From Cenococcum geophilum (lineage: Eukaryota): a DNA stretch of 64,000 nt. The stretch spans positions 21,018,001 to 21,082,000 of the forward strand of contig CP158635.1 in assembly GCA_050273025.1 (NCBI GenBank), read 5' to 3'. A program made the position numbers and the translations under genes. The notes under the pieces are model-generated. The model was given only the letters and a program-made list of their open reading frames with translations. It was not told where the DNA came from and did not search any database. This document shows, one piece after another, positions 5,840 to 53,980 of this stretch. The first letter of the stretch is position 1; the number at the start of each line of letters is the position of its first letter.

Positions 5840-7946
5840 TTTTTTTTTATATATCCATTGTATTATACTACGTATAATACTGCGCATGCAGTCTTGGGCT
5901 ATGGCGCTATAGTTCTATATATATAAATCCTTTTTAGGCAGCTTAATATATACTAGTAGCTATGTCCTAGTGGTTTATAAACCCCTAAATTAGGAGTTTA
6001 TAGTTTCCTAGTAAGATACTAAGATACTACAACTACTAGGGAATGAGAAAATGGTAAGAAAAACTATAAGAAATCCTAACCCCTATCCCTATCCTTTTGC
6101 AATTTATTTCTGTCCTTTTGCTCTCTAATATCTCTTTAAGAGCCTAGTAGGAGTTGCCTCCTTTTAGAATCCTATCTGTTTTATTCTTCCATAGAATCTT
6201 CTTCGCGTACTAGTTTAGCAGCTTTAAGAGTCTTGCAGTCTCTACTATTAGCAAAGTGTTTTTCTTTACAATTAATGTAAAGAGGGGTGGTATGCTAGTA
6301 AGGCTTGCCTGTTGTTATACAGGTAGAATAGGAATGGTCTTTAGATAAATGTGCAGCTGCATAGTATCTGCAGGCCCTAGTAGAGCACCTGTCTCCTATA
6401 TGGCCAAATTTTTGGCAGCTCGTACACTGCGTAGTGGGAGAGACTTCGAGGTATTTTACTACCTTAGTAGCTGTACCTGCAATTGATATCTCTTTTTGCT
6501 TAAGGATTTCTTGTCTTTTTTCTTTGTTCTTTATAGTAAAAACTATAGAGCCAAATCTGGTCTGTGGATCGTGTCTTTTTACACTAGATGAGATCTATTT
6601 AGGTAGTCCTTGTATCCTTATAGGATTAAAGGTCTTAATTTCTTCTTTTAGAAGCTTAGAGCCTCCTTCTCCTAGGAAAGGTAGGGTAGGAACCCTATGG
6701 GCTATAATTTGAACCCATAGTTCTAGTTTTTATTCTCTTTAAAAGGTAAAGCAGTTATGCTAGATTTCCTTATATTTAACTAGGAAATCCGCATTATACT
6801 TTTCTGTAGTCGTAAGGAGAATATTTTGTTTTCCTTTAGTTCTAGCTATAGATGCTAAAATAGGTTTTTTTACTTGCAGTTTTGATGCAAATAGTTAATT
6901 AACTTTGTTTCGTATAGAGAAGGTATCTAGAGGTTGGTCCTTTTAGTCTGTAATTAAGACTAGCTTTCTTTCTTGTAGTTGCTTTTTCTTACTTCTAGTA
7001 GAAGTAGAAGGAGTAGGAAATGGTAGTGACGAGGAGGGTAGAGAGGACGAAGTAGGGAGGTCCTTCTTTAGCCTCTCTGCGTAGGTTTCTTTAGTAGGGG
7101 CTACCTCCTTACGGAGAGCTCTTACTTCTTTAACTAGTCCTTCTAGGATATCTTTTGTATTTTTTTTTCCTTTTATAAAGGGATTTTCTCCTGCTAGGAC
7201 ACTACGTGTATAGTCCTCCAGCTGTTTAACTTGTTCCTTTTTGTCTTCTTCTTCTTCTTCTTCTAGCCCTTTATAGGCCTGGGTTAGGCTATCTAGAGCC
7301 TTTTGTAGGTATTGTTCTGGAGAAAGGGGAGAGAAAGATATACTAGGTATACCAGCCGTAAAAGTCATTAGTTTGGTTGTCTTTTTTGTAGGTTTTTGGT
7401 TTTCTTTTTTAGTAGAAGACTGAGGATGTCCTCTTTTTTCTCTTGTCCTAAATAGGCTAGGAGAAGGAGAAGGGCTGGAAAAAGTGAATGTAGATATAGA
7501 CTCATTATTACTTATTTCTATAGGAGGTTTCTTTTTAGGCCTACCGGGCCTTGGCATTTTGTGTCTTATAGGGGGTTTTTCCTAGTTTTTACTATCCTTA
7601 TACCCTTTCTCCTTACTAATCCTACTAGAAGATTTCTGGGGAGATTAGGCTAAGAGGTAGTAGAGAAACTAGCCCCTATTTTGTAGTTTTGGTATTAGTG
7701 GTAGTGGTAGTAGTTTTGGTATTCCTGTCCGTGCCTCGCTTATAAGCTAGGGCCACCCTTAGAGAAATTTTTTCTGTTGGGAAAAGGGGGTAAAACGACA
7801 AATAAATCCACCTCTAGCTTGCTAGGCAGTAGGAATTAGGCCCCGAAAGTTAGAAAATCGATTGTTTTTGATGGTAAGATGGGTATGCGTAAGTTTTGGA
7901 GTGTGGCGCTACCTTTTGGTAAGGTTGCATATGTGGTGAAGGTTTT
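5840..7946 (-). mobile_element. Internally deleted LINE (Tad1-like): 5' end + ORF1 (gag, CCHC knuckles) + 3' UTR + poly(A), without ORF2
   Basis: 13-bp TSD TACTAATATATCT at 5827-5839 and 7947-7959; poly-T at 5840. ORF1 begins MPRPGRPKKK (7557) and contains CTSCQKFGHIGDRC (~6430-6390). The 3' UTR matches that of the LINE at 52560. Confidence 0.85.
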
Positions 7947-16206: not shown

Positions 16207-17408
16207 ATGGCCGAACAACATGGGTTAGGAGACCCCTTCTTTGAGACCCCAGAGGCGAAAGTAGAGTATGCAGAAGACAATATCGCTCCTCCCAAGCTCT
16301 AACTGACAAGGCAGTATCGTCTTCATACATGGACTTGGTGGTGATAGAGTTAGGACCTGGACATGGGAGGGCAGCGATAGAGTACTTTTCTGGCCGAAAG
16401 ATCTCCTGCCTCAAGCCTGCCCAGCAGCTCGCATCCTTTCCTTTGGTTACAACGCGGACTTTACTCACTTCTACCCGTTCTACGGGCCAAAGTTTATTTC
16501 GGAGCAGTTGACCATTGACGACCATTCAACTGCACTCTTCCAGAGTCTCATCGGCCTGCGCGAGAAAACAAACACTGTAAGGAATAGGCACGTATATCCC
16601 TCTCTGCATAGGAAATAAGCTAAGAATATATCTACCTCTAGTCAGAACGCCCTGTTATTTTTGTCTCGCACAGCTTAGGAGGCCTTGTATGCGCCAATGC
16701 ATTATCGAGGCATCATGGAACTGACCTGGCCAGCGCCAGCCTCGGGGAAAAGACGATTGGGATCGTCTTTCTTGGGACACCGTTCGAAGGATCTTCGAAA
16801 TCGAAATGGGCCGGAAGGGCGCTTAAGATACTAGACTGGATAAGCACGACACAAAAGGAGGATGTGAAAGATCTTGAAGAGCGCTCGGCAAAGCTTATGA
16901 GCATCAATGAGGCCTTCCAGAAGTTCCTAAAGGCGCGAGATCGGTCGGAAACGAGACAGTTTGTGGAAGTAGCTTGTTTCTTTGAGCAGTATGCTATATA
17001 CAAGGCCGGCAAGAAGATTGGAACCATCGTGCCTAAGGAATCCGCCCGCCTGCCAGGCATCGACCCGCAGTCAATCCAGGCTAACCACGTTGACATGTGC
17101 AAGTTTGAGGATGAAGACCGAGAGGGTTACAAGAATATTTCGCAAAGGCTGAACCAATGGATATCGGATCTTGATAGGAGAGTCAAGGGATTTACTGAGG
17201 AGAGCCAGGTTTGACAATGCTTTTTTTTACTCCTGACGCTAGCTAAAACGGACAGAAATACTCGGTTTGTATGGGTGATGTCAATTTTAGTAATAAGATT
17301 GATAATAACCGGGGAGTGATTATGGGCCATGCCTATAGCACAGCTACAGACGGGGTTAGGATAACTGGTAGCAGTACCAGTGTATGGGGTTACCAATTCT
17401 CGCGGTAG
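16207..17408 (+). CDS. SesB/DUF676-like alpha/beta hydrolase (lipase-like) with a C-terminal putative amyloid signalling motif; 4 exons (16207-16265, 16315-16576, 16642-17208, 17256-17408), 346 aa
   Basis: Three GT..AG introns (49, 65, 47 bp) join one open frame: MAEQHGLG..VDIVFIHGLGGD..TW..FWPKDLLP..ARILSFGYNAD..RPVIFVSHSLGGLV..GIVFLGTPFEGS..CFFE..IVPKESA..ANHVDMCKF. These are the typical motifs of fungal NLR-associated SesB-like hydrolases (Ser elbow xHSxG, C-terminal His). The region lacks the RIP bias of its flanks. Confidence 0.9.
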
Positions 17409-17542
17409 CGACATACAAGCTAACAGAGTGTATAGAACACCTACCACGGAATTAATCCAAAGGATTATAGGCAGACCAATGGATAGTAAAGTGTAAGAGG
17501 CAATAATAGTTTAGCTGAGGAGATGCCGCAAGGTATCGGCGC

Positions 17543-19100
17543 CAGACTTGCTGATAAGCAAGCAAGCAAGAGGCCTTATTTTGGGCAAGCAAGCAAGCAA
17601 AAGAAGAGCTTGCTTGCTTGCTTACTTATTTATTGCTTATATATAGTTAATTTAGTAGTAGCGGTAGTTGGTGATAGACCTTTGGTGTTTTTAGAGTGGC
17701 TAAGGCAATGCAAATAGTGTAAACAAGCCCTTTCAGGTAACCGCTAAGCCTATTTAAACCGTTTTTCCGCGCCGACTAAAAGTCTTATATAGCTTATAGT
17801 AAATAATAAATACCTTCCTATCCTTATCCGCCACTAACTCTACTAATTTAATAGAACCTACTTAGCCACCGCTACTACTATAGTATAGGACCCTGCCAAC
17901 GCGAGTATAAGCGTGACAGCCGCGGAAAACCCCTTAGCCCCTATAATCTTATCGTTAGAAGCCGAGCTTATAGACGACAATAATATTAATAATTATAATG
18001 GTATTAACTAGAAACGACTTCCGGATCTTTAAAACCCTTATTATAGCTTAAAGTAAACGCCTAGCTTTATTTATAAATACGGGTATAGGTGCTAAAGTTA
18101 GGTAAAGCTGGAGCAAATTATCTTTATTTATAAGTACTGCTACTAATATAAAATTCTTAACTGTAAAAGTCTTAGTCGTTATAATATATTAAATGCTAAT
18201 ACTACTGCTTAAATGCATCTTGCTAAAAATACTCCTAGCTATAAATATGATAAAAATAGAGAGATTATATTTAAATTAAAAAAGCGCGAGTATACCATTT
18301 TTAAGTAACTTTAGGCTTCAGGCCAATATATCACTTAAAAGGCTGCTAACACGATTATTAGCGGCTTTAATACATCTATATTTAAGTAATTAGCTATTAA
18401 TTAGCTTACCGAAAACAACCACCCGCTATAAAAGTTTAAAACCTTATCTTTCCGCCGTATAATATAAATTGCGAACCCTAAGGCTAAGCGCGTACTCTGG
18501 CTTAATTATTAAGCGGTAGCAAACTATATACTAGCCGACTATAAAGCGTATCTTCCCTCTATTACTAAGACTCTTACTACCTTTAGATTACTCCTCTATA
18601 TATCCTTTAATAGCTTACTCTTACCGGCATATATATATATTACCTTAGTAAGAAAGGCCGTATAGTGGACTATATACTTACTTTGCCTACGTAGCTCGGC
18701 TAGCACTTAGGAATTAACTGCGCGGAAGTTATTAATAATGTCTTTAATACGTTTAAGATTATAAAGGAGCGGCTTAGCTACTCTATTACTAATAACGTCC
18801 ATATAAATAATACTTATTTAGATTATTTAGTAGTTAAATTTAGCTTTAATAAGGCCTATAGGCGCACCTATTACGCTTACTATATCCTAAATCTAGTTAC
18901 TTAGCAGCTTATATTTAGTAAAAATAAAAAAGCTTTTAAAAACAAGGATATAAATATACTGGAAGAAGAAGAGTTTCTAAAGCAATAGCGGAAAGAAGGA
19001 CCGCTTAGAACACTTTATAACCTTATTAATTCGATTAATACGCCTTAGCTTATACAGCTATTTAAGCAATATTAAGTTAATAAGAATATACCTCTACGTC
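17543..19100 (+). mobile_element. 5' part of a RIPed hAT transposon
   Basis: Terminus CAGACTTGCTG with direct and inverted (AAGC)n/(GCTT)n subterminal repeats. Degenerate transposase motifs: (C)KYC (~18130), T(D)NVH..N(D)T (~18788), (C)A(CH)ILNL (~18872), RKEGPL(G)TL(H)NL (~18989). Confidence 0.75.
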
Positions 19101-19277
19101 AGGAAAAAATTTACTAGCATTTAATTTTACTTTTTAGCCATTTTAGCATTTTCTAGCATTTCTAGCATTTTCTAGTATTTAGCTGCTAAATGCGGCATTT
19201 ATAATTAAGTCTTAGCATTTAGCTACTAAGTGCTAACTATAAGATTACTAAGCATACATAAAAGTATAAATTTTATA

Positions 19278-19332
19278 AATTTTAATAATTTTAATAATTT
19301 TAATAATTTTAATAATTTTAATAATTTTAATA
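19278..19332. repeat. Minisatellite (ATTTTAATA)x~6
   Basis: Directly visible 9-bp period. Confidence 0.85.
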
Positions 19333-20381
19333 TATTTTATATTTTATATATACTTTATTAATAAATATTAAAGTTACTACCCCTATAAAATCTTGCTAAG
19401 GCTCTATATTATAAAAAAATTTACTAGCATCTTAAGGTAGGTTTATGCTAATCTAGTAATGTTGGCATTTAGCCGCATTTAGTTGCATTTTGTGGCTATA
19501 TACTACACCGCTAATAATAATGCTATAATTTGCAGCTAAACGCTGCCTTAATAATAATAGTGCTGTAAGCTGCAGCTTATTATAGTATAAGCCGCTTATT
19601 ATAGTATAAGCCGACTATTATAGTACGAGCTAACTGTTAAGATATGAGGTAAAAGTATATAATTAATATCGCGTGAAGATCTATATAGGAAGTAAGGTAG
19701 TATATATACGTATTGCTTAGGAGTTAGGTCCATACTTATATATACGCGTACGCTTATAAGCCAAATTATAATAATACGTATTAGTCCCGTAATATAGCTT
19801 AATACTCTTTTAGAAATAATAATACTAGAAATATTTTAGTTAACTAAGTTTACTATATTCGCTACGCTACTACTTATAAGTTACTAGAAGATACGTCCCT
19901 TAGCCTATATATACGCCACTATATAATTATAATAGGTTTTACTATATAGTAACTATATATAGTATTCGGAACTATCTATAGTTATATTATACTCTTATAA
20001 TTATTACCAGTATTAAATAGTCTTAGTATCTTCCTTCTTACTTTAGCCTGCTTTTAAGCTTAAATAGGCCTTCTCCTTATATACCAACTTCTGCAGTAAT
20101 AACGTAAATTTAGTTAACTTTAATATCCTTTACTTAATACTCGACTTTTAATTAGCTATAATAGTACTATAGTAGACGGGCTTGGTTTGTCCTTATTAAT
20201 CTATCTAAGTAAATAGCTGTTTTACCTCTAAGAGCTTATAGCTTAGCTTAACTATAATAGTATAATTTACGTGCTATAGGTTAATAGCCAGCCTAATTAA
20301 TATAAAGGTGCAAAGTAGGATCCACTTAAAGTTATTAGTATTAAAGGTTTGCCTAGCCTTAGCCTTCTTAATATTAGATAT

Positions 20382-20624
20382 TGTAACCGACTACCGACAC
20401 TGTGCTGAGACACAAGATCACCGCTTGGAAGGCTCCTAGACAGTGTCAACACCACCCTATATATTGATCGCAGATCAATATTGCTTGCAGATCACTGTTC
20501 CCATTTCAGTTACCTATTACCCCATCATGTCTCATTACCTCTACCTTCGTGTATATATAGAGGCTTTAGAGCTACATTCACAATCAAGTTACTTGTTCAA
20601 TTCCCACACACTGCAAAGCTTATA
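20382..20624. mobile_element. Solo LTR, 243 bp
   Basis: Starts TGTAAC, ends GCTTATA (RIPed ..TACA); TSD GATAT at 20377-20381 and 20625-20629. Confidence 0.8.
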
Positions 20625-21900
20625 GATATACTAGCTATATAGCAGAGCACCTTATCTTTACCGTATTTTTTATATAGCCTATTAAACTAATAAGCTAGTT
20701 TAAGAGGTAAGTAAGTGGTAATAATAATCTTATACGCTAAACCATCCGTCCGTTTTTTAATATAAACGTAATTATAGATTTTTTTAGCTTTAAAGAACCT
20801 TATATTCTATTAAAAATAGCGGTTAAGTATATTGGTAAACTTCTTACTAAGCGGGTTAGTAGTCTACTTAGCGATAATTAGGTCCTTAAGTGTGCAACTC
20901 TAAGTTTTTAGGTATTTATTAATAGACTTAATTATAATAGGGGCTTGCTGGTCCTAGTATTAAATAACCTAAGCTATGCTTACTACCGTTTTTATATTAG
21001 TATATAACTTAGCTTAGGTAAGTTTTAGTATTTAGATCACTACTATATTCCTCCTATATAGCCAGAAGTTCCTTATATTAGCGCCTTTACTCTATCCTTA
21101 CTTGCTCCCCTATAGCTATAATTATAGCCACCTTAATATTATTAGGGTCGGCCTATAATATAACTAATTTAAAATAGCTATTCTTTGGGATAAGCTTTTG
21201 CTAGTTAAACTAGAGTATTAACTCCCCTCTATATATCTAAAACGTTAGAATAACTGTACGGAAAAATACAGCCAGTTTGCCGAATTTCTTATCTACTATT
21301 ACTCTAGCTAGGTTAGTCTTCGCATCTTTATAAAGACGGTTAAATTCCTTCTTCTTTAAGCTTAAGTAATACTTTAAACTCCATTCCCTTTAGCTTATCT
21401 ACTTCTTCCTACTTAGGCCTTTTTAATCCTGCTATGATAAACCGTATTAGTTATATTAGGTTCCTATTATTAGGCGTACTAAACGCACCCTATATAGTAG
21501 GGCTGCGATTATACGCGATACGGTACTTTTTAACTATATCCTTAATAAATAATATTAAGACTCTACTAGTTATTTCTAGGTGGTATTTGTCCTAAAGGAT
21601 ATGCCTAACCTATATTATACTCTTTAATTTCTAATACAATTTAGGGGTTTAGCTATTTAGGTATTTCTATATACTAGTTTATATAGTAATAAACTCACGT
21701 ATTAGTTATGTAGTAATATAATTTCGCGTAGTAATTAGAAGGAATTTGGTTAAGTATCTTAGCGCTAATAGTTCTATTATATTAGAGGTAAAGTAATAAT
21801 AATTATTATTCTCCTATTATTCCTTATTAGTCTACTTAAAAGCCTTATAGATTTACGGCTATTTGTCCTTTTTAGTTTACTAAATATTTTAATTTTATTA

Positions 21901-22204
21901 TCCCATGCGCCGTTGAGAAAGGCGTACGCACAAGCGAACCAACCAGAATCACTAGATTGAATCGAGTCTCAGCGAAATAAAGTCGTGAATTTGATCAACG
22001 AATTAAGGCTCTAAACCATTATAATAAAGCTCAAACTTGATATATAATTGACTCTATCGTGTACTAATTAGGTTAGCAAAGTCCTTCTTTACAGAGGGGC
22101 ATATTGTATAGAGCGCAGCCGAATTGAGCCCTCGGAGAAGCGCGTTAATGTTTTGGTGTTCGCGCACGGGCCTCTTTTGGCGTACGCCTCAACGGCGCAT
22201 GGGA
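21901..22204. mobile_element. MITE, 304 bp, TA target duplication
   Basis: TA|TCCCATGCGCCGTTGAG..GGCGTACGC ... GCGTACGCCTCAACGGCGCATGGGA|TA. Confidence 0.9.
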
Positions 22205-25200
22205 TAGCTAGGGGCGAGAATTATAATCTAGGGCGAGTTAGGGCGCTTTATAATCGCGCCGTCTTATAATATTATACTCGCATTCTTTAGGAATCCTAAT
22301 AGGCCTAGGGTCGGCATAAGGATAACTAAATAGCCTTACTGTAGGTCTATAGGGTATAGCTTCTTAGAGTTATCTTTATAGTAGTATATAATTAGCTACT
22401 TTACTACCTATAAGCATTTTATATCCGGCGAATGCATCTTAGGTAGGTAGTAGGTTATATCCCCAGCGGCTTAGGCCTCTTAAATGTCTATTATATTCTA
22501 ATAATAAAAGTAGTTTATTAGCCACTAAGTAATTATTTATACAGTCTTGCCCGCGTTAGGTTCGTCTACATAAATACCACCTTCTTTAATCGTCCTCTCT
22601 TGCTTAAATACCTAAGCTATATATACTACTTAGTATAGGCTAAATTTAAAGCCTAATATAAGGCCTTAATTAGGGAGTTTAATTAGGGTAGTTTGGAAAG
22701 TACTTTTAATAAAATAAGTAGGAAATACTCTAGAGTAAGTAAAAGATCCGCTTCCGTTATATACCACTAGTATACTATTTAGGTTATCCTCTCTAGCCTT
22801 ATAGAGCTAGGCTAAAAAAGTTTACTAGTTAACTTCTTCCTCTATATCCATATCTTAGTTATTATTATTAACCAAATCCTTATTTTTGTCTCCACTCTAC
22901 GCGTTTTTAGAGTTAGTATAATATAGGAACTAATTATTATATCTACCGGCACATTATAGCAATTTACTGTCCTCTATAGTAATATCTTAAGGGGTATTAA
23001 TAGTTAGTAATACGGTAGTAGGGTCGTCTATTATATTGTTAGGCTAGTATATACCTTTAGGTTTAATAATAGGTTGCGGCGATTTACTATTATTTATGGC
23101 GATTTCTTTAATACCGCTGTTACTTGCTAATATAGGCTTATAGGTAAATAGATTACGTCTTCTCTTTACTAATTGCCTTCTACGCACAATTAGCTTATTA
23201 TTACTATTTTCTATAAGGGTGCCTACCGTTAATTCTAGTTAAGGGCGCTTTCTATATCTATTTGGGTTGGCCTTATAACCATTTAACTTCCTAGGCGCAA
23301 CTGGTTTACTTTTATTATCCTTTATTAGGGCACTTATTGCTAATTTTAGTTAAGGCCACTTATTATATTTGCCTAATTTAGTCTTACTATTATCTAATTT
23401 CTTATATTTAATAGGCTCGCCCTTACTATCTTCCTTAGAGCTATATACTACTAATCCTAAATAACTTCGCTTTTTACCTCCTTCTAGTTTATTCTTACCG
23501 CTAGCCTTATACGGCGTTAGTACTTACTAGCTGTCTTTTACGCTACGTTTATTACGTCTAGGCGCCTTAGATTTAATAGCTAGCGGTATATTATTAGTAG
23601 TAGCGACTTAGGAGTTTAAGCTAGGAGGTAAGAATAATACTATAAGTACGGCCTCCTTTATACTATTTTTTGCTATTTTACTAAAAGCTACAATAAGTGT
23701 ACCCTCTAATTATATTATGAGGTTTTTATATCTCTATAGCGATATATAGATATTCTTTTTAGGCAAACTATTAATATTAAGCTCTATATAGGCTCGCAGT
23801 TTCTTTTATAGCTTGCCTAAAGCTATATATAGGTTTCCACTTATTAGATATAAGACTTAAACTACCCCAACTATTAATTTACCCATTAAGCCTATAGATT
23901 AGATTTTAATCTTAATATCTTCTATATTAATTACGTTACTTACTATTAGGGTTACTAGCTAAGGTAAAGGGATACTATATAGTAGGTTTACGGTAATACC
24001 TATAGGCTATATTGTATATAGTAGCTAAGGTAGCGTTGTTTTATCTTATGCTTTAATCTTTAAGGGTAACATATATTTACGCAGAGGTAGGTTTTTCTTA
24101 GAGGTACTTAGTACCCTTCTTATATAATTAGAATAAGTACTTTCTATAATTCTTAGGATTACCTATAGTTTCTAATCCGGTAGAGTATTAGTAAATTATA
24201 AGAGTTACTTATAATACTCCTTAATATATCCTTTTTTTATTATCGCAGAGTTGCCGCAATATATTACGTTTTTAGGCTTAACTTTAATCGCGACATCTTT
24301 AACCTTCTCTTTTAGTCTATTATAGTTTTTAATGCTTATTTTAAAGCCTTAGGCAATATCCATATCTTTAGTTAGCTTTAGGTTCACCTTATACCACGCA
24401 TCCGGCTTTACCTATAGTTACATTATTATTAAGTTGCTTATTTAGTTAGGTATGTATAATATTACGGTATATATTAAGTGGAAGGTAACTATTAAAGTAG
24501 GAGGGCTTTATACGGTAGCTAGCTAATAGTATATTAGTATAACTTTAGTATTAGATATAGTTAAAGGTTAGTTATTGGAGAGATAGAAGGTAGGATAAGT
24601 AAAGTAAATTAAGGAGAGGTAAAGTAGTAGATCTTATAATTACCTACACATACCCGCATAAAGGTAAAATTAGCTATTATTTGCTACTACTAGTTAGGGT
24701 AAATATGGCTAGACTTAGTGCTATATAGTTAAATAAGGGCATAATTATATAACTTATAGGGACTACTCTACCTAGCCTATTTTAGGCTAGGTGCGGTTTA
24801 ATACCGCTAAATTCTTATAGTTTTTAATGCGAGTAATTTATTAAGTACCTATTGAGGGATAACTAATTATTACGGTATAGTAGAATATAGGAGGTTGTAG
24901 GCGTTATAATATTTCTTATTATTATATAAAGTTAGTATATATACGCGCCGCTAGAGTTAAAGGACTGGCCTATATCTATACGTGCGGGCTCTATTACTAT
25001 AAAGTGTTTATTTTATAATAGGTAGTATTTCTAGTAGATAATAACGTATTACACTTATTATAGGCGTTACTATCTTTCTTATTGCTATATAAAGTTAGTA
25101 GATAGATACGCTACTAAAATTAAAGGGCTAGCCTACGTTTATATATACGGACTCTATTGCTATAAAGTGCTTAGTATATAATAGGTAGTACTTCTAATAA

Positions 25201-25399
25201 ACGGCAACGTATTACACATACTTTATAATCGCTAGTATTATTATTACACTACTATATAGTACTTAAGGGCCTACTAGGTAAGTCTATCCAGAATAATAAT
25301 TATTTAGTATATGAAATACTTTTACGTCTATGCCTAAATATTAAGTACTTATTTAAACGTATATTTACTGTAAAAGGTAGTAAACAGTTTTATATCTTA

Positions 25400-28300
25400 T
25401 ACTATAAGTTATAGGATAAACATCTCGGTAAAACACTTAATAGATAAATTCTAACTCTTTAACCAAATTCTACTAAATTCTATTAGCTTAATTAACTTCT
25501 GCCAAGTTCTACTAGATTAATTAAATTTTACTAAAGTCCATTAAAGACCGCGTGCGCATATATACACGTATTAACCACTAAGACCCCTAACTCTTTAATT
25601 ATATAATTCTCTTATCCTCTATAAGAGCTATATCTTTAAATTTAGATAGAATTTATATTATTCCTTTAAGACTATACTTAAAGAGGGAAAGTAGCCTGGA
25701 TTTAGACCCCTATATAGTATATCCTAAAATAAACTTTAAGTACTATAAAAGTATCTAAAGGAGAACCTAAGTAAAGGATTTATTAGAGTAAGCTCTTCGC
25801 CTATAGCCGTATTAGTGATCTTTATTAAGAAACCCGGTAGTAGTTTACGCTTCTATATAAACTGCTAAGCTCTTAATAGTATTACTATTAAGAATAAATA
25901 TTTAATCCCATTAATATAAGAGACGCTAAACTAATTAAGTAAGGCTCGCTATTATATAAAGCTTAATATTATCTCTATATTTAACCGCCTCCGTATTACT
26001 AAAGGAGATAAATAGCTTATTGCGTTCCGTACCCGGTATAGATTATTTAAATACTTAGTAATAATATTTAGCCTTATAAACGCCCTAAGCTTATTTTAGC
26101 ACTATATAAATAATACCCTATATCCCTACCTAGATATCTTCTATACTGCTTATATTAATAATATTTTAATATATAGTAATAACCTAACCGAATACTAGAA
26201 ATACGTTAATCTTATTCTATAAGCCCTATAAGGAGCTAGCCTATAATTAAATATAAATAAATACCAATTTTCTAAAATAGAAGTCCTATGCCTTAGGCTT
26301 TTTTTATATATAAATAGCATATAAATAGACCTAAAGAAAGTTAAAGTAATTATAAACTATTAAAAACCTAAGAATGTTAAGGACGTAATGTCTCTATAGG
26401 ATTTGCCAATTTCTATTAATAGTGTATTAATAACTTCTTTGCCCTAGTTTTACCCCTTATAGCTCTAACCTAAAAAGATAAAGCCTTTATCTTTAATATG
26501 AAATATAAGAAGGCCTTTACTTATCTAAAGGTTTTATTTACTACTACGCCTATACTCTAATACTTTAACCTAAACTAAATAAGTATTATAAAGCTAACTT
26601 ATCTAACTATATTACTAAATATATTCTATCTTAATATAATAAAGATAGAGTATTATACCCCATAGTATACTTTTTAAAATAACTAAGCCTAGCTAAATAT
26701 AACTATAAGATCTACGATAAGGAATTGCTAGCTATTATTAGATATTTTAAATAATAGTAACCTAAACTAGAAGGCGCTGGATTTCTAATTAAGGTCCTTA
26801 GCAACTATAAGAATCTATAATACTTTATAACTATAAAATAGTTAAGCTATTATTAGGCCTATTAGTTAAAATATCTATCTTATATCTAATTCTTAATTAT
26901 ATACCGCCTAGGCATTTAAGGCCAGAAGCCTAATACTCCAACCTAACGCTTATAAAATACGCTAGTATTAAAAAAAAGCACGCTCTTACTAAAATTAAAC
27001 CCTACTTTACCCTAAACTATTTAACCCTTTTATAGAAGATCTTATGGTATACGTCTTTAAAATAACTAATTAATTAATTAAATAGATTATTATTATTAAT
27101 AAATACTTAAACAACGAGTTTATCTAAGAGACACTTAAGCTAATTTAAGATATTATTAGACGCTTTAAAAAGATCTCTCTAAGTAGATATAAAGCTCGTG
27201 AAGACCGCTTATACTACTAAAACCGCCTAGTTATACCTAACTATAACAAACTTAAGCTTAAGCTCCTTAAACACGTATACGACCTACTAGTAGCTAGCTA
27301 CCTAGGCTAAGGAAAAACTCTAGAGCTACTTTAATAAGAGTACTACTAACTAAATATATATAATATAATACAAAGGTATATCTTTAGCTGCTATATCTAC
27401 TAATAAGCTAAAGCTTTATATAAGACGCATAACGGCCTTTTAAAGCTACTCCCTATTCTAGACTAAAGATAGAAGGATATTTTAATTAACTTTATTATTA
27501 ATCTCCCTATAAGTAAAGGCTATATAAATATTATAGTAGTTATAAACTAACTATCTAAGATAAGACACCTAATCGCCTACCCTAATATATTAATACCTAC
27601 TATTGCTAACTATTCCTAGATTATATATAGAAGCTCTACAGGCTCCCCAAAATAATTATCTCTAATAAAGGCAGCTAGTTTATATTTGTATTTTAAAAGG
27701 AACTAACTACCTAACTCTATATTAAAGCACTATTGTTTATATTATACTACCTAGAAATAAATAGTTAAATAAAACGTATAAATACTATAATAGAATAACT
27801 AAATTAACTAGCTTATACTTACTAGGTTTACTATAAATAATTCCATCTTAGAAACTATAAAGATTTCCCTATTCTTAGTTAACTATGGCTAGTACCTATA
27901 AATGGGTTTTAAACCCTTTAGTAATATTCCTTACCCCGCTTATTATGCTTTATAAATTATAGAAGTAAATAAATTGATAAAGAAAATAGAGGAACTATAA
28001 TAGTTTTTTTATTAATAAAATAATATGGGCCTAATTTATTTATTAAGCTATAGTGAATAAGAAATAAACCTTAGCGCCAATTTACTAAATTAGTAATTTT
28101 ATCTAGCTAGATATAAGAAATCTAAACACAAAACAACTTATTAAGAAACTTAATTAGAAAAACACTGGCCCTTATAAGGTTAAAAAGGTTATCTCTTCTT
28201 ATGCCTACTAATTAAAGCTTCCTAATACGGTTAAAATCCACCCTATATTTTATATATCAGTCCTTCGCCCTACTGCCCCTATATTAGACGCCCTGTCTAA

Positions 28301-28924
28301 ACAAATATAGGACCCTTTCCTACTAGTTAAAGTAGATAGCAAGAATAAGTACTTTATTAAAAGAATTAATAATATTAAGTATAATAAGCGAAAACGCCAA
28401 TTTATATACCTTATAAAATAGAAAGGCTTTATTAAGGCTTTATAGAAACCCGTTAACTCTATAGGACTTATATAAGCTATAGAAGACATTTATAAACTTT
28501 CCTTAGAACTACTATAGCCCTATCTCGCAGAAGCTTAAATTTAAAGGGGGGGTATTATTATAGGACACCCCCGTAATACTTTATATATATTTACCTATTT
28601 TTATTAACTTAACAATTAGAGACCAACTATAAAACCATAATTTACCGCAACCTATAGCAATCTAATAGCAATCTGCTATATTCTACTATATTCCACTAAG
28701 TTTTACTAAATCCTACTAAGTTCTGCTAGAACTACTACCTAAATCCTATTCTACTTTATATATATATTAACTAAGCAACCAAGCTAATAATATATACCCC
28801 TTCTACCTATTTTCCTACCTTCTTTCCTTACGCAACGTCTTAACTTTATTACGCAGTTTATATATATAGCTTAATAGTATCTACTTCGCTATATATTATC
28901 GTCGCTTATACTTATTTTATAATA
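25400..28924 (+). mobile_element. 5'-truncated RIPed chromoviral Gypsy (RT, RNase H, integrase, chromodomain, PPT, 3' LTR 28556-28924)
   Basis: AYI(DD)ILIYS (~26148), NY(E)IYDKELLAI (~26701), GPYKV and IHPIF (~28167-28250), PPT aaagggggggg. The LTR matches 61791-62148. Confidence 0.9.
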
Positions 28925-29772
28925 GCCTTTTTATAAGCTAGAGTATGTTATATTAAATTTATATAAATACTGTATATAAAAAATAGCTAGCTAAAAAGCG
29001 GCCCTTATTTATAAAGGACTTAGTAAAAGCTTAATTAAGGTAGGCGATTAAATATAAAAAGTGGAAGTAATTAAAGTAGGCTAAGATTATATAGAGTAAT
29101 AAGTATTTAGTTAAGAGAAGTTTTAGTAAGTAATGGTTTTATATCTTTTATATACTATAATAAAAATAAAATAAAGATAAGATTAATATTTATAAAAAGG
29201 ATAAAGGGTATATAGTTATAGTATAGGTAAGCTTTTCTAGAGCTTTTAAAAGGTCTAATTTAGTAGGTATAGAAAGGGATAAGGAGTTGCCTAAGGGGGG
29301 GGTACTCTACTTAATCTTATATTTAAATTTTAGATAACTAAATACCTTAAGTCTATAAGCCCGATTTCTAATTTATATAGGGCAACGCTTTAATATATAA
29401 ATTAAAGCTTATATACTTACCCGATTTAAACCCTATTAAACACACCTAGGTATAACTTAAAGAGACGTTCTATAAACGATTTCCAAAGATTGCATATATG
29501 CGCGGCCCTAAGGAGAAGGTAATTAAGAAGCTATCTAAGGCCCTAGTAATTTGCTAGAACGAGATAGCTCCTGCCATTTTTAAGTCTTTAATTAATAGTA
29601 TGGAAGAGCCATGCGATGCTATAATTGAGGCCAAAGGGTGGCACACTAGATTTTGAACACCAAAAATGTATCACGATTACTAGATTGTGTATCTGTAAGT
29701 AGCTTCAGATATTTTTTGAAGCTCTGGAATCAATTGTGTGACTTGCGCATAGTATTTTGGCAGGGGGTGTCA
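28925..29772 (+). mobile_element. 3' part of a Tc1/mariner transposase relic, TIR missing
   Basis: Y(S)PDLNPI(E)HT(W) at ~29414 and C-terminus SMEEPCDAIIEAKGWHTRF* (29597-29656). Homologous to 56870-57350. Confidence 0.85.
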
Positions 29773-29890
29773 CATTTGCTGGGCCTCATGATCACCCCCG
29801 ATATGTGATAGTTATCTTATAAACTAGACCATTGGTATATATACAATGCACACGTGCGGGCATACTGCTCCTTATCACCCAACGAATTCT

Positions 29891-32800
29891 CTACCGACTG
29901 TCTGCCGTTTTCTGCCAGTGCCGTAACAATTTGAATCGCGATCGCCAGGTGACTCGATCGGGTGGATGGCTCGTTGGGGTGTTAGTTCTACCATATTCCC
30001 AACGACTGCCGATTTGAATCCTGAACAGGGTTTGCGTTAATTGCTCGAGCCTATATGGCACAGTAATAAGTGCGCTTTGTAGCAGCATATCTGGGCACCT
30101 CTCGCATAGAAGCGCTATTATTTTTTGCCCGCCACCTGAATTTTCTACCGCTGCTTTAACTACCTCCCCTGTGATGTACACTTCGCTCCCTCGTCGATCA
30201 AGCAGGAGCATCATCACCTCTTTATCAAATAACTTTGCTATTTGAGCAACCGCCTCCTCTGTGATTTTAACTTCGCTCCCTAGTCGATTAAACAGGAGCG
30301 TCATGATGTCTTTTCCATTTCCCTTATTTTCTGCTGCTGCTCTAACCACCTCTTCTGTGATCTGAATTTCGCTCCCTCGTCGATTAAGCAGGAGCATTAT
30401 CACTTCTTTACCATATAACTTTATTATTTGAGCAACCGCCTCTTCTGAGATCTTTACTTCGCTCCCTCGCCGATCAAGCAAGAGCGTCATGATGTCTTTT
30501 CCATTTCCCCATTTCTCTGCTGCTTTAACTACTTCTTCTGTGATCTTTACTTCGCTCCCTCGTCGATCAAGCAGGAGCGCCATAATGTCCTTTCCACTTA
30601 CCCAATTCCCTGCTGCTGCTCTAACCACCTCTTCTGTGATATTCACTTCGCTCCCTCGTCGATCAAGCAGGAGCGCCATGATGTCCTTTCCATTTCCCCT
30701 ATTTTCCGCTGCTGCTCTGACCACCTCTTCTGTGATATTCACTTCGCTCCCTCGTCGATCAAGCAGGAGCGTCATGATGTCTTTTCCATTTCCCCTATTT
30801 TCCGCTGCTGCTCTAACCACCTCTTCTGTGATTTTAACTTCGCTCCCTCGTCGATCAAGCAGGAGCGTCATAATGTCTTTTCCATTTTCCGAATTTCCTG
30901 CTACTACTCTAACCACCTCTTCTATAATCTTTACTTCGCTACCTCGTTGATCAAGTAGGAGCGCCATGATGTCTTTTCCATTTCCCCTATTTTCCGCCAC
31001 TGCTCTAACTACCTCTTTTGTGATTTTAACTTCGCTCCCTCGTCGATTAAGCAAGAGCATCATCACCTCTTTATTAAATAACTTTGCTATTTGAGCAACT
31101 ACCTTTTCCGTGATCTTAAATTTGCACTCCTGTCGATTAAGCAGGAGCGTCATAATGTCTTTTCCATTTCCCTTATTCTCTACTACTATTCTAACCACCT
31201 CTTCTGTAATGTTCACTTCACTCCCTCGTCGATTAAGCAGGAGCGTCATAATATCTTTTCCATTTCGCGTATTCCCCGCTGCTGCTTTAACAGCTCCTGC
31301 CGTGACAGTAACTGGCTTATTTGAACCGAAAGGAGAGAATGTTCTAACTTTATAGTAAGCTTAATTACTCGTTCAAGCTTTAGAAGGTACTTACAGTAGT
31401 ATATCTAGCACTGCTTCCTGCCCCCAATAGCACGCAGCCTGTAGTGCACTATTATATTTACCACCCTTCGCGTTTATATCCGCCCCTGAATCAATTAGGA
31501 GTTTCGCTATCTCTTTATAGCCGCTATATGCTGCTGCCTGAAGTGCGTTCCCAAAGTAGCCGCCTTGTTCGTTTGGGTTAATACCGCCATCTAGAAGGAA
31601 TTGTGTCTCATTAATGAGTCCAAATACCGCTGCCCAGTACAGTGCGGATTGTTTTGTCGATTCACGAGTTCGCGTATAGGGGGGGTCAGTTAACATGGAG
31701 TAGGTACGGAACCATGTGCAAGACAATCCGTTACCGATATCGCAGAGTGCCGCTGTTTTCGAAACCCAGATCGGGTTATGAGCTTCCTGCACATGGAATA
31801 TCCAGTGTCTCGCCGAATAATTCAAGAATGCATAGCTCTCTAGATAGTGAAAAGCCAGTGACCTGCCTCTGAGGTACGATTCGTTGGCATTGATTGGGAT
31901 ACCGTGGTATTCCTGGAAATCCCGGAAGAGTAGAAGAGTAATGCATATCTCCGAGAGCACCTGATGGGCTTTTTGGAGATCAATCGAGTGTCTCCACTCT
32001 TGCAGTTCGGATATTTCGTTGTTCTGCTGTATCAGAAACTCCCTTGCTGTCTGATGGATCAAGTAGACGCGGGAGTCTACTATGCTGACGAACAACCCGC
32101 ACGATTTACTAATCCATTTCTTTCTCTTCGCAAGCCCCTCGAGGTCGAGAGATTTATAGGATGTTGAATCCGGAACGATCTCTAAAGCCACATCAATTTC
32201 GCGCAATGTTAATGGGCGCTGTGCTGCAACAATGATCTGTAAAACTCTTTTCGCCTCTTTCTGCTTGCATTTTGCCAGGATTTTCTCATAAGCCTCCTCA
32301 ACTGTTTTGGGCAAGGTATCAACGACCTTTAGCAACTTTTTCTTCGTCTGTCCCAGTGCATTTTTTATTTCGTCCAATATCAGGTGAAGCCAGAGGTAGG
32401 TTCTGTTTGGTATTTCGCAGAGTCGGTCGTGCAAAGATGACTGTACGTCCTCATCTAGGTCTAGCTCCTCCGCGATCTCTTTGACTTTTGCCTCTATAAC
32501 GGCGCCGATTTCGCGACTGATCTTTCCCGACTCTTCTTCCCCAGCTAGCCGGATAGTCGGGACCTGGCGCGTTAATATGCGGAAGCGACGCTCAATTTCG
32601 TCGTACGGACGGCTAGTCACGAGGAACTTCAGCTTAGATTCAAGCTTAAGCGTGCCTAGAGCACTGCTGTAAAAACTCTCCAGTTGCACGATAAGTTTGT
32701 CCCGGTCGGGCTGACGGCATTCGTCGAGCGCATCAAGGATGCAGATAACATAACCAGCAGATGGGTCCCTTGCAGCGGATATTAACACGTGCCATAGTTC

Positions 32801-33409
32801 TTCGAACTCGTTCCTTAGGGTTTGTCCACATTTCTTCGCAGCCAAAGCAGCGTGTCTTTTAAGGAGATTCTCATGTGCACAAAAAAACTGATGAAGTAAT
32901 GCACATAATGCGGTCGTAACGTTATCTTGCTCATCGTTGTCTTTAAAGAAGAAGTGGCAAAGAGTAGTAGATTCTGCACCAACTAGCTTCTCGTCAATTA
33001 AAGCTCGCGATAACACTGATTTTCCACAGCCTGGATCAGCAGAGAGCCAAAGAAGGTTGTCGCCGTCGCTAGCTTTCCAACTTTGGAATTTTTGGTGCTC
33101 TAAAAACCATGCGCAAGTCCCTGAGACACGCTTAGGATTAATATTTTTGTAGGACTCGTAGTTCGACGTCTTGAAAAAACTCAGCTGGATATCTGCCGCC
33201 CCATATCAGCTAGCTGCTGTGCGGGGAGACACAGCTCCTTAGCAGCGACTTACCTGGGTATTGGATATTATAGTTTGTCTGCGAGCCTGACCGGAACTTA
33301 GTGTAGGATAGAAAAATTAATGTGAACAGGACACACCAATTACTTGCGCATGGCCTGACGCGGCCCCAAGCACGACCCCGCGGTTGTTGGAAATTTCACC
33401 AAAATTCAT
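29891..33409 (-). CDS. Fungal NLR: short N-terminal motif + NACHT NTPase + ankyrin + tandem ankyrin-like repeats; 4 exons (33409-33337, 33286-33254, 33192-31395, 31343-29891), ~1118 aa
   Basis: Walker A LLWLSADPGCGKS, Walker B ICILDALDEC, KFLVTSRPY, YLWLHL, LIHQTAREFL, ankyrin ALQAAAYSGYKEIAKLLIDSGADINAKGG. Three GT..AG introns (50, 61, 51 bp) keep the frame and join the two track ORFs (31391-33016 and 29891-31249) to an ATG at 33409. The extreme 3' end is less certain. Confidence 0.9.
30130..31310 (-). repeat. Coding tandem array of ~12 units of 90-96 bp (consensus MTLLLDRRGSEVKITEEVVRAAAENRGNGKDI) forming the NLR sensor domain
   Basis: Recurrent 'acttcgctccctcgtcgatcaagcaggagcg' at ~96-bp spacing. 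The 32-aa units are interspersed with 30-aa 'AQIAKLF-KEV' units. Confidence 0.95.
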
Positions 33410-33637
33410 CTCGCCAGTCGAGACTGCAGGCGCATTACCAGCCATTGCTGCTGTGGCTGTAGAGGATTATGCACACATGGAGGTAGAAACTGTGCTGCGA
33501 GTCTGTCCAAGGCACCATAAGACACGAAGATGGCTTCATCGTTCTCACAGATGCGGCTGACCTTAGCTGACCTTTCCCGGCGCACGGTCCATCGGGACAG
33601 AGATGGGCCAACGGATCCCGGCTGGAAGGTGCACTTA

Positions 33638-33987
33638 CAGTACCTCGTCAAAAGTGTCCGTGCTTCCCACACCAAAATTTTTTACCGTCACCCGCCCTAC
33701 TTTTTTAACCCTACTTTTTAACCATACCACGTCGTGCGTTAGCTCCAATCAGCGGGAATATTCCCTATGGGAAGGAATTAACTAGCTATAAAAGAGGAGT
33801 AGTTCTAGGATCTGCTAGAGCAGGAGCTATACCCCCTAAAATTACAACTAAGTTAAACTTACTAGAATTAACCGTATAAAAAACCTTATTTAAAGTACCT
33901 TAACGCCTATAAGGCAAATCTATTCCTTAAATTAGGCGTTTTTTTATAAATATATAATTTAAGATAAATATAAGATTTTAAGGATTA
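33638..33987 (+). mobile_element. Left TIR and 5' part of a Tc1/mariner element, split by Gypsy B and probably continuing at 56826
   Basis: TA|CAGTACCTCGTCAAAAGTGTCCGTGC..CACACCAAAA is the inverted counterpart of 15598-15637. Confidence 0.75.
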
Positions 33988-52559: not shown

Positions 52560-53980
52560 TTATTTATTTTATATCCATTGTATTGTACTACGTACAATAC
52601 TGCGCATGCAGCCTCTGGGCTATGGCGCTATAGTTCTATATACATGAATCCTTTCTAGGCAGCTTAACATGTACTAGTAGCTATGTCCTAGTAGTTTATA
52701 AACCTCTAGACTAGAGGTTTACCGCTCCCTAGTAAAATACTAGGTTACGACAACTATTAGGTAATATTAAAACAGTAGAAAAACGGTAAAAGAAACGGTA
52801 AACGAATCCCAACGCCTGCCCCTGTACATTTTATAGTTTATTTCTGTCCTTTTGCTCACTACTGTCTATTTACTAGAAGTCTAGTAGGAGTTACCTCCTT
52901 CTAAAGCTTCTTCTTCCATTAGCCACTCTCTAGTAGCTATTTTTGTCTTACTTAGAAATAGGAAAAGCGCCCTTCTTCCTTTCTCTGTACAAAAGAGCTT
53001 CTCTAGGGAGAGAGAAGAGTTTAGTTGTCTTTGCATTTCTTTTCTCTCTTCCCTGTATAGTTTGCATTCTAGTAATAGGTGTTTAGGAGTCTGTATAGCT
53101 CTACAGCCCTTAAAGCATCTACCTTCTTTATCCTTCCCTATTGTCTTAGAGAAGGATTTAAAGAAGCCTTTTCCTAGTTTTAGTTGATAGAAGGCTGATT
53201 GTAACCTTTTAGGATATTTATCCTTAGGGGCTTTAAGAGATAAGGAGTAGTTTCCTCTAGAGATCCTAGTATAGTGTTTTCCTTTATTTTTTTTCTGTTG
53301 CCAGCTGCTTTTCCACTGTCCTAGTATTTTTTCTCTTGCTGTTCTCCTTATATAGGCTAGGGATGTATAAGAAGATTGTATTTTTCTTCTAGAGAGGCCC
53401 TTTTTAGCTAGCTTATCTGCTATTTCGTTTCCATAGATTCCTAGGTGGCTAGGAACCCAATAGAAGTTAATAGAGATACTCCTACTAGCTAGATAAGAGC
53501 AGCTTTGCGTAATTTTAAAGACTAGTTCTTGTCCCCCTGTAAGAGAATTAAGCTGTAATCTTTTAATAGCTGCTTGGCTATCTATAAAGATATAAACTTG
53601 TTTCTCTTCTAGTCTTTGTTGTTTTAGATATTCTAGGGCCCTATAGACTGCATAAAGTTCTGCGTCCATAATTTCCATATAAGGCCCTAGATTCCAATTT
53701 GTTGCGTATTTAATCCTATTTCTCTCCCCTATTTTACATACGGCCGCTGCACTTGATTTACTATCTTTAGAGCCGTCTGTATAGTATATATCTACTAGGT
53801 CCCATTCTAGGGATTCTTGTAGATTTTCTACTAGTCTTAGATGTTCTTGTACAGCTTCTTCTTTACTACCCCTAGAGATAGAAAAGAATGCAGAAATAGG
53901 GGGAGACCACGGTTTTTGCCAATCTAGAGAGATTCTCTCTATTTTCCAATTTTGAATTAGTTGCTGGACTCTAGAAGCTA
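52560..53980 (-). mobile_element. 5'-truncated LINE (RNase H end of ORF2 + 3' UTR) nested in Gypsy B
   Basis: 13-bp TSD TACGACTTTATTT (52547-52559, 53981-53993). The 3' UTR is shared with the element at 5840. Confidence 0.9.
52881..53978 (-). CDS. LINE ORF2 C-terminal fragment: RNase H domain + C-terminal Cys/His motif (no start; 5'-truncated)
   Basis: Open frame with YYTDGSK, DAELYAV, FIDSQAA, WVPSHLGIYGNEIADKLAK and C..C....QTPKHLLLEC. Confidence 0.85.
   Translation of the reverse strand, partial: ASRVQQLIQNWKIERISLDWQKPWSPPISAFFSISRGSKEEAVQEHLRLVENLQESLEWDLVDIYYTDGSKDSKSSAAAVCKIGERNRIKYATNWNLGPYMEIMDAELYAVYRALEYLKQQRLEEKQVYIFIDSQAAIKRLQLNSLTGGQELVFKITQSCSYLASRSISINFYWVPSHLGIYGNEIADKLAKKGLSRRKIQSSYTSLAYIRRTAREKILGQWKSSWQQKKNKGKHYTRISRGNYSLSLKAPKDKYPKRLQSAFYQLKLGKGFFKSFSKTIGKDKEGRCFKGCRAIQTPKHLLLECKLYREERKEMQRQLNSSLSLEKLFCTEKGRRALFLFLSKTKIATREWLMEEEALEGGNSY

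Follow-up and report, generated by a model that had tools for sequence, protein, structure and literature searches.

Described systems and the locus under study

Fungal amyloid families associated with NOD-like receptors (NLRs) number five in a list running up to 2025: HRAM, sigma, PP and PUASM1-2 (PMC12261475). In the PNT1/HELLP/SBP system of Chaetomium globosum and Podospora anserina, an effector-less NLR has a putative SesB-like lipase as its neighbour, and a short N/G-rich peptide whose G-φ-x-φ-G core (φ, hydrophobic residue) is flanked by N occurs N-terminally in the receptor and C-terminally in the effector (PMC7885112, PMC5485727). At the sigma locus (het-eN/sesA/sesB) of Nectria haematococca, a SesB-type alpha/beta hydrolase serves as effector, the NLR combines NACHT and ankyrin regions, and the motif is ~40 aa long with a three-fold internal organisation (PMC3321046, PMC5485727). 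NWD2/HET-S and the HRAM motif follow a receptor/effector logic in which the peptide is disordered until templated, and PUASM is the most recent new fungal NLR-associated motif to be defined via adjacency to an enzymatic effector (Wojciechowski et al. 2022). Here we consider a locus of Cenococcum geophilum, contained in a 64,000-nucleotide stretch of contig CP158635.1 (positions 21,018,001 to 21,082,000, forward strand; hereafter the window), in which an effector-less NLR and a SesB-like alpha/beta hydrolase share a short, glycine- and asparagine-rich peptide of ~45 residues, which is N-terminal in the former and C-terminal in the latter.

The locus recalls each of these systems in part. The SesB-like partner, the terminal positions of an N/G-rich peptide and its G-φ-x-φ-G core flanked by N are as in PNT1/HELLP/SBP; the type of effector, the NACHT and ankyrin regions of the NLR and the three-fold organisation of a motif of similar length are as in the sigma locus; and the receptor/effector logic would be that of NWD2/HET-S, with disorder of the peptide being a prediction here and templating a proposal. 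We consider it likely that the two genes encode an NLR-to-SesB-lipase pair which would communicate by amyloid templating and which uses a motif family not yet classified. By analogy, the locus is best explained as an NLR/effector module of two genes, comparable to NWD2/HET-S and PNT1/HELLP/SBP.

A peptide shared by the receptor and the hydrolase

The shared peptide is built of three φ-x-φ-G segments, each ending in G (SVCMG, GVIMG and RITG in the effector; AVSTG, GVVLG and QVIG in the NLR), and the stretches joining them are 1 and 4 residues shorter on the NLR side. An initial annotation of this DNA had placed the motif on both proteins, and there it is indeed found, although at ~45 aa it is longer than had been supposed. 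A six-frame search of the 64 kb with the expression N[FY].{2,4}[IVL].NN.G returned the two expected places and no other, 17283 (+) and 33406 (-); the shorter NN[RK]G[VIL] returned three, the third at 60606 within stop-ridden sequence. The identical NNRGV core is written with AAC AAC CGC GGG GTC in one gene and AAT AAC CGG GGA GTG in the other, and since 4 of these 5 third codon positions differ, as already noted in the initial annotation, constraint would act on the protein.

Comparison of the whole NLR with the whole hydrolase by BLASTP gives its best alignment between NLR residues 7-68 and hydrolase residues 299-347 (E=6e-5). In the same comparison hydrolase residues 336-347 (TSNTYHGINPK) resemble NLR residues 56-68 (TSNYESYKNINPK), just before the NACHT region. 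Hidden Markov models (HMMs) were built from hydrolase tails only, with either 11 ('core') or 28 ('broad') sequences and no NLR included. Against 152 full-length NLRs they returned three matches, all at residues 5-44: the window NLR (P0160, E=9e-7) and those of Aspergillus nanangensis (P0063, E=2.3e-4) and Byssothecium circinans (P0161, E=1e-3), the next best being E=0.36. Among 1688 six-frame pieces of the window and of a metagenomic locus described below (L001), only the exons encoding the hydrolase tails and the first exons of the two NLRs reached E<=0.01, that is, no third copy of the motif was found in them. Finally, profile-profile alignment of the NLR side with the effector side (hhalign) returned 97.0% probability and E=1e-10 over 37 columns, while reversed controls gave 1.0% (broad) and 1.7% (core). 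The similarity between the two peptides is beyond chance.

Gene structures and products

The hydrolase is represented by a 354-aa intron-free open reading frame (ORF) on a 1325-nt Logan contig (P0001). Because this ORF lacks introns and is 100% identical to the window exons, it derives from cDNA, and its mapping onto the window fixes the exon structure (Table 1). The initial annotation ended the protein in VWGYQFSR, which is wrong: those eight residues are intron-encoded, and a further intron (17382-17435) is removed, with the transcript joining 17381 to 17436, so that the true C-terminus reads GVRITGSSTS followed by NTYHGINPKDYRQTNG and the stop. The end of the motif contributed by exon 5 is kept in hydrolase orthologues as N-[TN]-Y-[HN]-G-x-x-P.

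Pfam matches to Abhydrolase_6, DUF676 and PGAP1 all have weak scores. An AlphaFold2 (AF2) model from a 45-sequence alignment is confident over residues 1-290, which take an alpha/beta-hydrolase fold whose Foldseek matches are generic alpha/beta hydrolases. In that alignment S118, in the HSLGG nucleophile elbow, is nearly invariant and E222 and H256 are invariant; given this conservation the enzyme looks intact, with these three residues as the putative catalytic triad. Two homologues bear the name 'SesB protein' (P0242, E=8.6e-58; P0259, E=3.5e-43). Fold, nucleophile elbow and SesB-named homologues are together what is expected of a SesB-like effector.

The NLR is identical to the deposited OCK93014.1 (P0160) of C. 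geophilum 1.58. Its first two introns (50 nt, 33287-33336; 61 nt, 33193-33253) have GT..AG ends on the minus strand, and both are absent from one contig of 2210-2240 nt in each of three of four RNA runs, so the N-terminal splicing proposed earlier stands; for the third intron, between 31394 and 31342, the deposited model is the sole basis. Taken with the hydrolase contig, the motif-bearing exons of both genes have RNA support. The absence of an effector domain ahead of the NACHT region was correctly noted in the initial annotation, while its start codon at 33409 was not: an in-frame ATG lies 12 codons upstream at 33445, inside the RNA contigs (5′ ends at 33511, 33517 and 33536), and is also the start of the deposited protein. 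The 12 residues thus added (MAGNAPAVSTGE) contain the first motif segment and are conserved in P0063, P0161 and L001. In all, 71 residues precede the NPHP3_N/NACHT domain.

At its other end the NLR has an array of DUF7104 repeats, visible in the DNA as 12.2 tandem copies of a 96-nt unit (76% matches; Tandem Repeats Finder). Internally conserved repeat blocks of this sort serve fungal NLRs as a variable sensor. DUF7104 is without assigned function; by analogy, the array is presumed to be the ligand-sensing part. The 5′ leader contained in the RNA contigs (33476-33518, minus strand) has two upstream ATGs in other frames: the one at 33518 opens 27 codons and ends just past the main ATG, and the one at 33478 opens 3 codons. 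These short frames may act in translational control.

Recurrence of the pair in other genomes

With the NACHT exon as query, 1.84 billion representatives were scanned; of the best 150 NLRs obtained, only that of A. nanangensis (P0063, KAF9893432.1) carries the motif. The same species has a tail-bearing orthologous hydrolase (P0166, KAF9893431.1), and both genes belong to one 671,713-nt contig; judged indirectly, from their consecutive accession numbers, they are adjacent. Identity to the window pair is 72-73% for the hydrolase and 56% for the NLR exon, closer than many same-class homologues, and for this reason horizontal transfer of the module between a Dothideomycete and a Eurotiomycete is possible.

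A metagenome scan returned one locus, L001, of 2984 nt (the 31.5-kb JGI contig of P0003 was not among its returns). Here the orthologous hydrolase is on the plus strand (ATG 530) and the NLR exon MADNTPTVTTGIKEFGAISHNCGVVAGDISGHARVI on the minus strand (ATG 246), head-to-head with 283 bp between start codons. The NLR introns are positioned as in the window and the second exon encodes SQTNNNYYP, the contig stopping before the NACHT region. Linkage is thus kept while orientation varies, from convergent with a 12.4-kb spacer in the window to divergent with 283 bp in L001. A fourth motif-bearing NLR is that of B. circinans, whose partner effector was not found in our searches.

The motif therefore co-occurs in homologous gene pairs of two further genomes, and the arrangement typical of the general class, a motif at the N-terminus of an effector-less NLR and at the C-terminus of a nearby effector, is seen at three loci. 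Identity between NLR side and effector side is ~40%, and a single position (N to H, in L001) is altered on both.

The tail among SesB-like hydrolases

The motif is not private to this locus. Among 120 SesB-like homologues (E<=1e-20 to P0001, plus first hits), 58 have the tail at E<=0.01, and 28 of these 58 furnished the broad HMM. Carriers span Dothideomycetes, Eurotiomycetes, Sordariomycetes and Leotiomycetes. Among the 62 homologues with no tail match, many have truncated gene models ending at the intron that precedes the tail, and others have different tails, including a sigma tail (P0262).

At the centre of segment 2 (G-φ-x-φ-G), the 58 tails have V in 31 cases, I in 15, Q in 5, L in 3, M in 2 and A in 2. 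The window has I in the effector and V in the NLR, and V or I is found in all four NLR-side copies. A FastTree phylogeny of the hydrolase domains was made with 48 ingroup sequences, 10 fragments being dropped, and rooted on four tail-less or sigma-type proteins. In this tree the four Q-centred tails all belong to a single clade of 14 members (support 1.0) and are nested among 44 tails with a hydrophobic centre. The sister group of the 14-member clade is an 8-member one containing the window hydrolase, and the two jointly have support of 0.988. Given that all Q-centred tails fall in one nested clade, the central Q looks secondary, not ancestral, in the tail family.

Comparison with described motif families

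The initial annotation had suggested that the motif might be new or diverged, and no described family fits it. We compared PP, sigma, HRAM and PUASM through their published consensus features and Pfam, a comparison that does not extend to the published motif HMMs and grammars. The consensus features are not found, Pfam is silent, and the S1 Table of the Wojciechowski 2022 survey (PMC9815663), whose screen includes the PP model NLR07, lists OCK93014.1 as 'unannotated, not-clustered, noasm'. The S5 Table of the same survey has no Cenococcum pair, and its hydrolase-linked motifs fall in PP/RHIM and sigma clusters. Six tail-bearing hydrolases (EED12083, EFR02207, KID99757, EKJ74957, OOQ90744 and CEJ56872) are absent from the part of its supplementary tables that we examined. 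A full-text literature search for Cenococcum with 'NOD-like receptor' and 'amyloid' returned no treatment of this locus.

The sigma motif is a three-fold repeat of submotif A (GxGxQFNxx) with submotif B (GGTQNINT) (PMC3321046). Neither is present in NLR residues 1-50 or hydrolase residues 294-354, and the Pfam models NACHT_sigma and Ses_B give no match, whether the whole proteins are searched (E<=1) or the motif exons (E<=10), while the control P0262 matches NACHT_sigma at 1e-7; unlike the sigma locus, there is also no sesA partner here. The HRAM unit is 21 aa long and has N/Q/H at position 3, hydrophobic residues at 5, 8, 10, 16 and 18, R/K at 15 and G at 19, in two effector copies (PMC4518210). 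When the N of VNF is set at position 3, G falls at 17, hydrophobics occupy 14-16 and position 15 lacks R/K; the effector has a single copy and a hydrolase in place of the HeLo domain, and Pfam HET-s_218-289 matches neither the NLR, the hydrolase nor the motif exons. HRAM was accordingly rejected. PUASM reads FxGxGxQxxGxGxF and is found on PNP_UDP effectors (PMC9815663); the pattern is absent from both peptides and the effector here is an alpha/beta hydrolase.

The PP family requires closer attention, since the G-φ-x-φ-G shape of our motif resembles PP/RHIM. PP/RHIM/BASS3 motifs have a central G-φ-Q-φ-G core with flanking N and G (PMC7885112, bioRxiv 2020.01.06.895854), and one could suppose the same templating mechanism with a diverged PP/RHIM member, in which the central Q has drifted to V or I, in place of a new family; this is the main alternative. 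Known PP effectors include SesB-like lipases (SBP), segment 2 of the effector (N-N-R-G-V-I-M-G-H) is close in form and has the flanking N and G, five of the 58 tails do have Q at the centre (e.g., GVQAG, GVQVG), and the nearest NACHT relatives P0014, P0022 and P0042 have SIQ[IF]NG N-termini. Several observations make this derivation unlikely: the central Q is missing from the window pair, from all four NLR-side copies and from 53 of 58 tails; the conserved region is ~45 aa in three segments, whereas the PP pseudopalindrome is ~20 aa; with the tail HMM, P0120 and its PP-like N-terminus score only E=1.2, and P0014, P0022, P0028 and P0042 go unreported at E<=10; the published screen by HMMs and grammars, a PP model among them, enters this NLR as 'noasm' (PMC9815663); and the tree, rooted on four outgroup sequences, puts Q as derived. 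A Q-less descent from PP had been considered as the principal explanation and was downgraded after the tree was obtained. As a further difference from PNT1/HELLP/SBP, the tail HMM finds no motif-bearing HeLo-like third gene in the window or L001.

Only tentatively do we go beyond an unclassified motif and suggest that with this tail a sixth family of fungal amyloid signalling motifs could be founded. This family would have a three-strand (φ-x-φ-G)x3 architecture of ~45 residues, ancestral to a SesB-like lipase clade of Dothideomycetes, Eurotiomycetes, Sordariomycetes and Leotiomycetes, with a RHIM-shaped core in which a hydrophobic residue stands in place of the invariant glutamine of PP/RHIM/BASS3, Q having been acquired secondarily in a few members.

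Amyloid-type properties and N-termini of related receptors

Residues G, N, Q, V and I make up 46.8% of the tails against 25.2% of the rest of the hydrolases, and 46.6% of the NLR side; K, P and L account for 7.7% of the tails against 21.0% of the rest, and 6.9% of the NLR side. The same bias was reported for BASS and fungal amyloid motifs (bioRxiv 2020.01.06.895854). Charged residues are fewer in the NLR-side copy (11.2%) than in the effector tails (14.2%), as in HRAM r0 motifs (PMC4518210). Hydrolase residues 292-354 have AF2 predicted local distance difference test values of 36-65, a low-confidence or disordered range. A G/N/Q/V/I-rich, K/P/L-poor peptide on a tail unstructured by prediction is what characterises the general class. 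Searching the ESM Atlas with the hydrolase tail gave no usable match.

The best 150 NACHT relatives (P0010-P0159, query exon 31394-33193) have a near-identical chassis (FFKTSNYESYKNINPKRV.GTC.WFLEH), and the closest ones differ in their short N-terminal motifs: PP-like SIQ[IF]NG or GVQTG in four of 150, sigma-like AGRDVN in two and HRAM-like in three. This suggests that signalling motifs are swapped frequently on one NLR backbone. Since its closest NACHT relatives carry other amyloid-type motifs, the clade would habitually signal through short N-terminal peptides.

Proposed mechanism and its alternatives

Results on RNA, on co-occurrence and on family mismatch are all favourable to the receptor-effector pair first proposed in the initial annotation. 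In the shared peptide we see a probable prion-like handshake through which the receptor would turn on the enzyme. Binding of a ligand by the repeats would lead to NACHT oligomerisation, which would gather the NLR N-terminal peptides and nucleate a cross-β fold; this fold would then template the hydrolase tail, and the hydrolase would become active, or be relocated, as a lipase/esterase that takes part in cell death or defence.

Certain observations weigh against such a pair. The window genes are convergent and 12.4 kb apart instead of immediately adjacent. Given the indels of 1 and 4 residues between the two sides, strict in-register stacking along the whole motif would not be guaranteed. Published systems tend toward within-cluster co-evolution (PMC3321046), and here there is no within-pair excess of identity: over 31-32 aligned columns in three pairs, own-pair comparisons give 13, 13 and 9 identical residues and cross-pair comparisons 10-13. 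NLR partners are known for three loci only, and word-limited searches identified none for the orthologous tails of about ten other Pleosporales species. One raw-read RNA run (X21) gave five partly fitting reads, all upstream of the NLR gene, and is uninformative.

Some of these observations would suit a non-amyloid interaction or regulatory element, where the tail docks on the NLR or on a third protein and the NLR N-terminus mimics or competes with it, with no cross-β templating. Each side is conserved across species instead of co-evolving within pairs, the indels suggest separate constraints, and the tail end resembles the NLR just before the NACHT region, as seen above. Yet in composition, in extreme-terminal position, in predicted disorder and in genomic architecture the pair agrees with amyloid signalling pairs already described, there is no evident folded partner domain, and the NLR clade elsewhere has HRAM-, PP- and sigma-like N-termini, so we hold this alternative to be quite improbable. 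That the peptide is a functionless linker remnant, left by fission or fusion of an ancestral all-in-one SesB-NACHT NLR, is hardly credible: such NLRs do exist among the relatives (P0145, P0146, P0149), but they have no tail-HMM match, and the peptide is kept on both sides across Dothideomycetes and Eurotiomycetes with synonymous divergence and retained in nearly half of the sampled hydrolases.

If the amyloid-templating pair is real, the known repertoire of prion-like immune signalling would gain one more family, linked to the common SesB lipase effector, and part of the many short NLR N-termini that published surveys enter as 'unannotated, noasm' would be accounted for. The motif is a natural test of whether the conserved glutamine of the RHIM-type core is needed for templating, and the tail family could show how RHIM-like cores arise or what Q is needed for. 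Among the searches made, the C. geophilum hydrolase protein was found only in the Logan source, with no NCBI-named entry for the species; the deposited annotation may lack its gene or model it wrongly, and therefore neighbour-based screens would have missed the pair, the more so with 12 kb of AT-rich DNA between the partners.

Layout of the window

Most of the window is AT-rich (GC 0.26-0.36), apart from two GC-rich islands (GC 0.43-0.49), one at 15-18 kb and one at 30-34 kb, each of which houses one gene, the hydrolase on the plus strand and the NLR on the minus strand. In the spacer between them the ORF list has no ORF >=130 aa.

Table 1. Coordinates of the NLR/hydrolase module and its parts within the window.
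Feature	Position	Strand	Basis or remark
SesB-like alpha/beta-hydrolase effector gene	16207..17486	+	exact mapping of P0001 onto the window; product 354 aa
Hydrolase coding exons	16207-16265, 16315-16576, 16642-17208, 17256-17381, 17436-17486 (incl. stop)	+	
Effector-side motif, main part, exon 4 (residues 298-338: YSVCMGDVNFSNKIDNNRGVIMGHAYSTATDGVRITGSSTS)	17259..17381	+	tail HMM E=5e-26
Effector-side motif, conserved end, exon 5 (NTYHGIN..P)	17436..17456	+	P0001 mapping; orthologue conservation
AT-rich spacer between the convergent hydrolase and NLR genes	17487..29890		12.4 kb; GC 0.26-0.36
NLR gene, 1130 aa	29891..33445	-	exact mapping of P0160 (OCK93014.1)
NLR coding exons	33445-33337, 33286-33254, 33192-31394, 31342-29891 (incl. 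stop)	-	
13 DUF7104 repeats	30140..31291	-	Pfam DUF7104 E=3e-149, 13 stretches; Tandem Repeats Finder
Ankyrin repeats (about residues 559-647)	31394..31660	-	Ank, Ank_2, Ank_4 matches
NACHT-type nucleotide-binding domain (Pfam NPHP3_N, residues 72-242)	32609..33121	-	NPHP3_N E=1.7e-38; NACHT 8.5e-4, below cutoff
NLR-side motif (residues 5-47, APAVSTGEMNFGEISNNRGVVLGAASGHAQVIGSQTNYNIQYP), split by the 50-nt intron 33287-33336	33254..33433	-	

Besides the two genes, the window has only two long ORFs, both on the minus strand. That at 6946-7581 (212 aa) has a weak RSB_motif match only, below cutoff, and that at 52884-53987 is an RNase H/RVT_3 retroelement remnant (E=3e-12). The remaining DNA is stop-ridden and AT-rich. 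A 970-nt contig of RNA run X10 (word depth 3642) matches the window over 30 bases upstream of the NLR (33634-33663) and is unlike it thereafter; it is probably an unrelated abundant RNA or a chimera.

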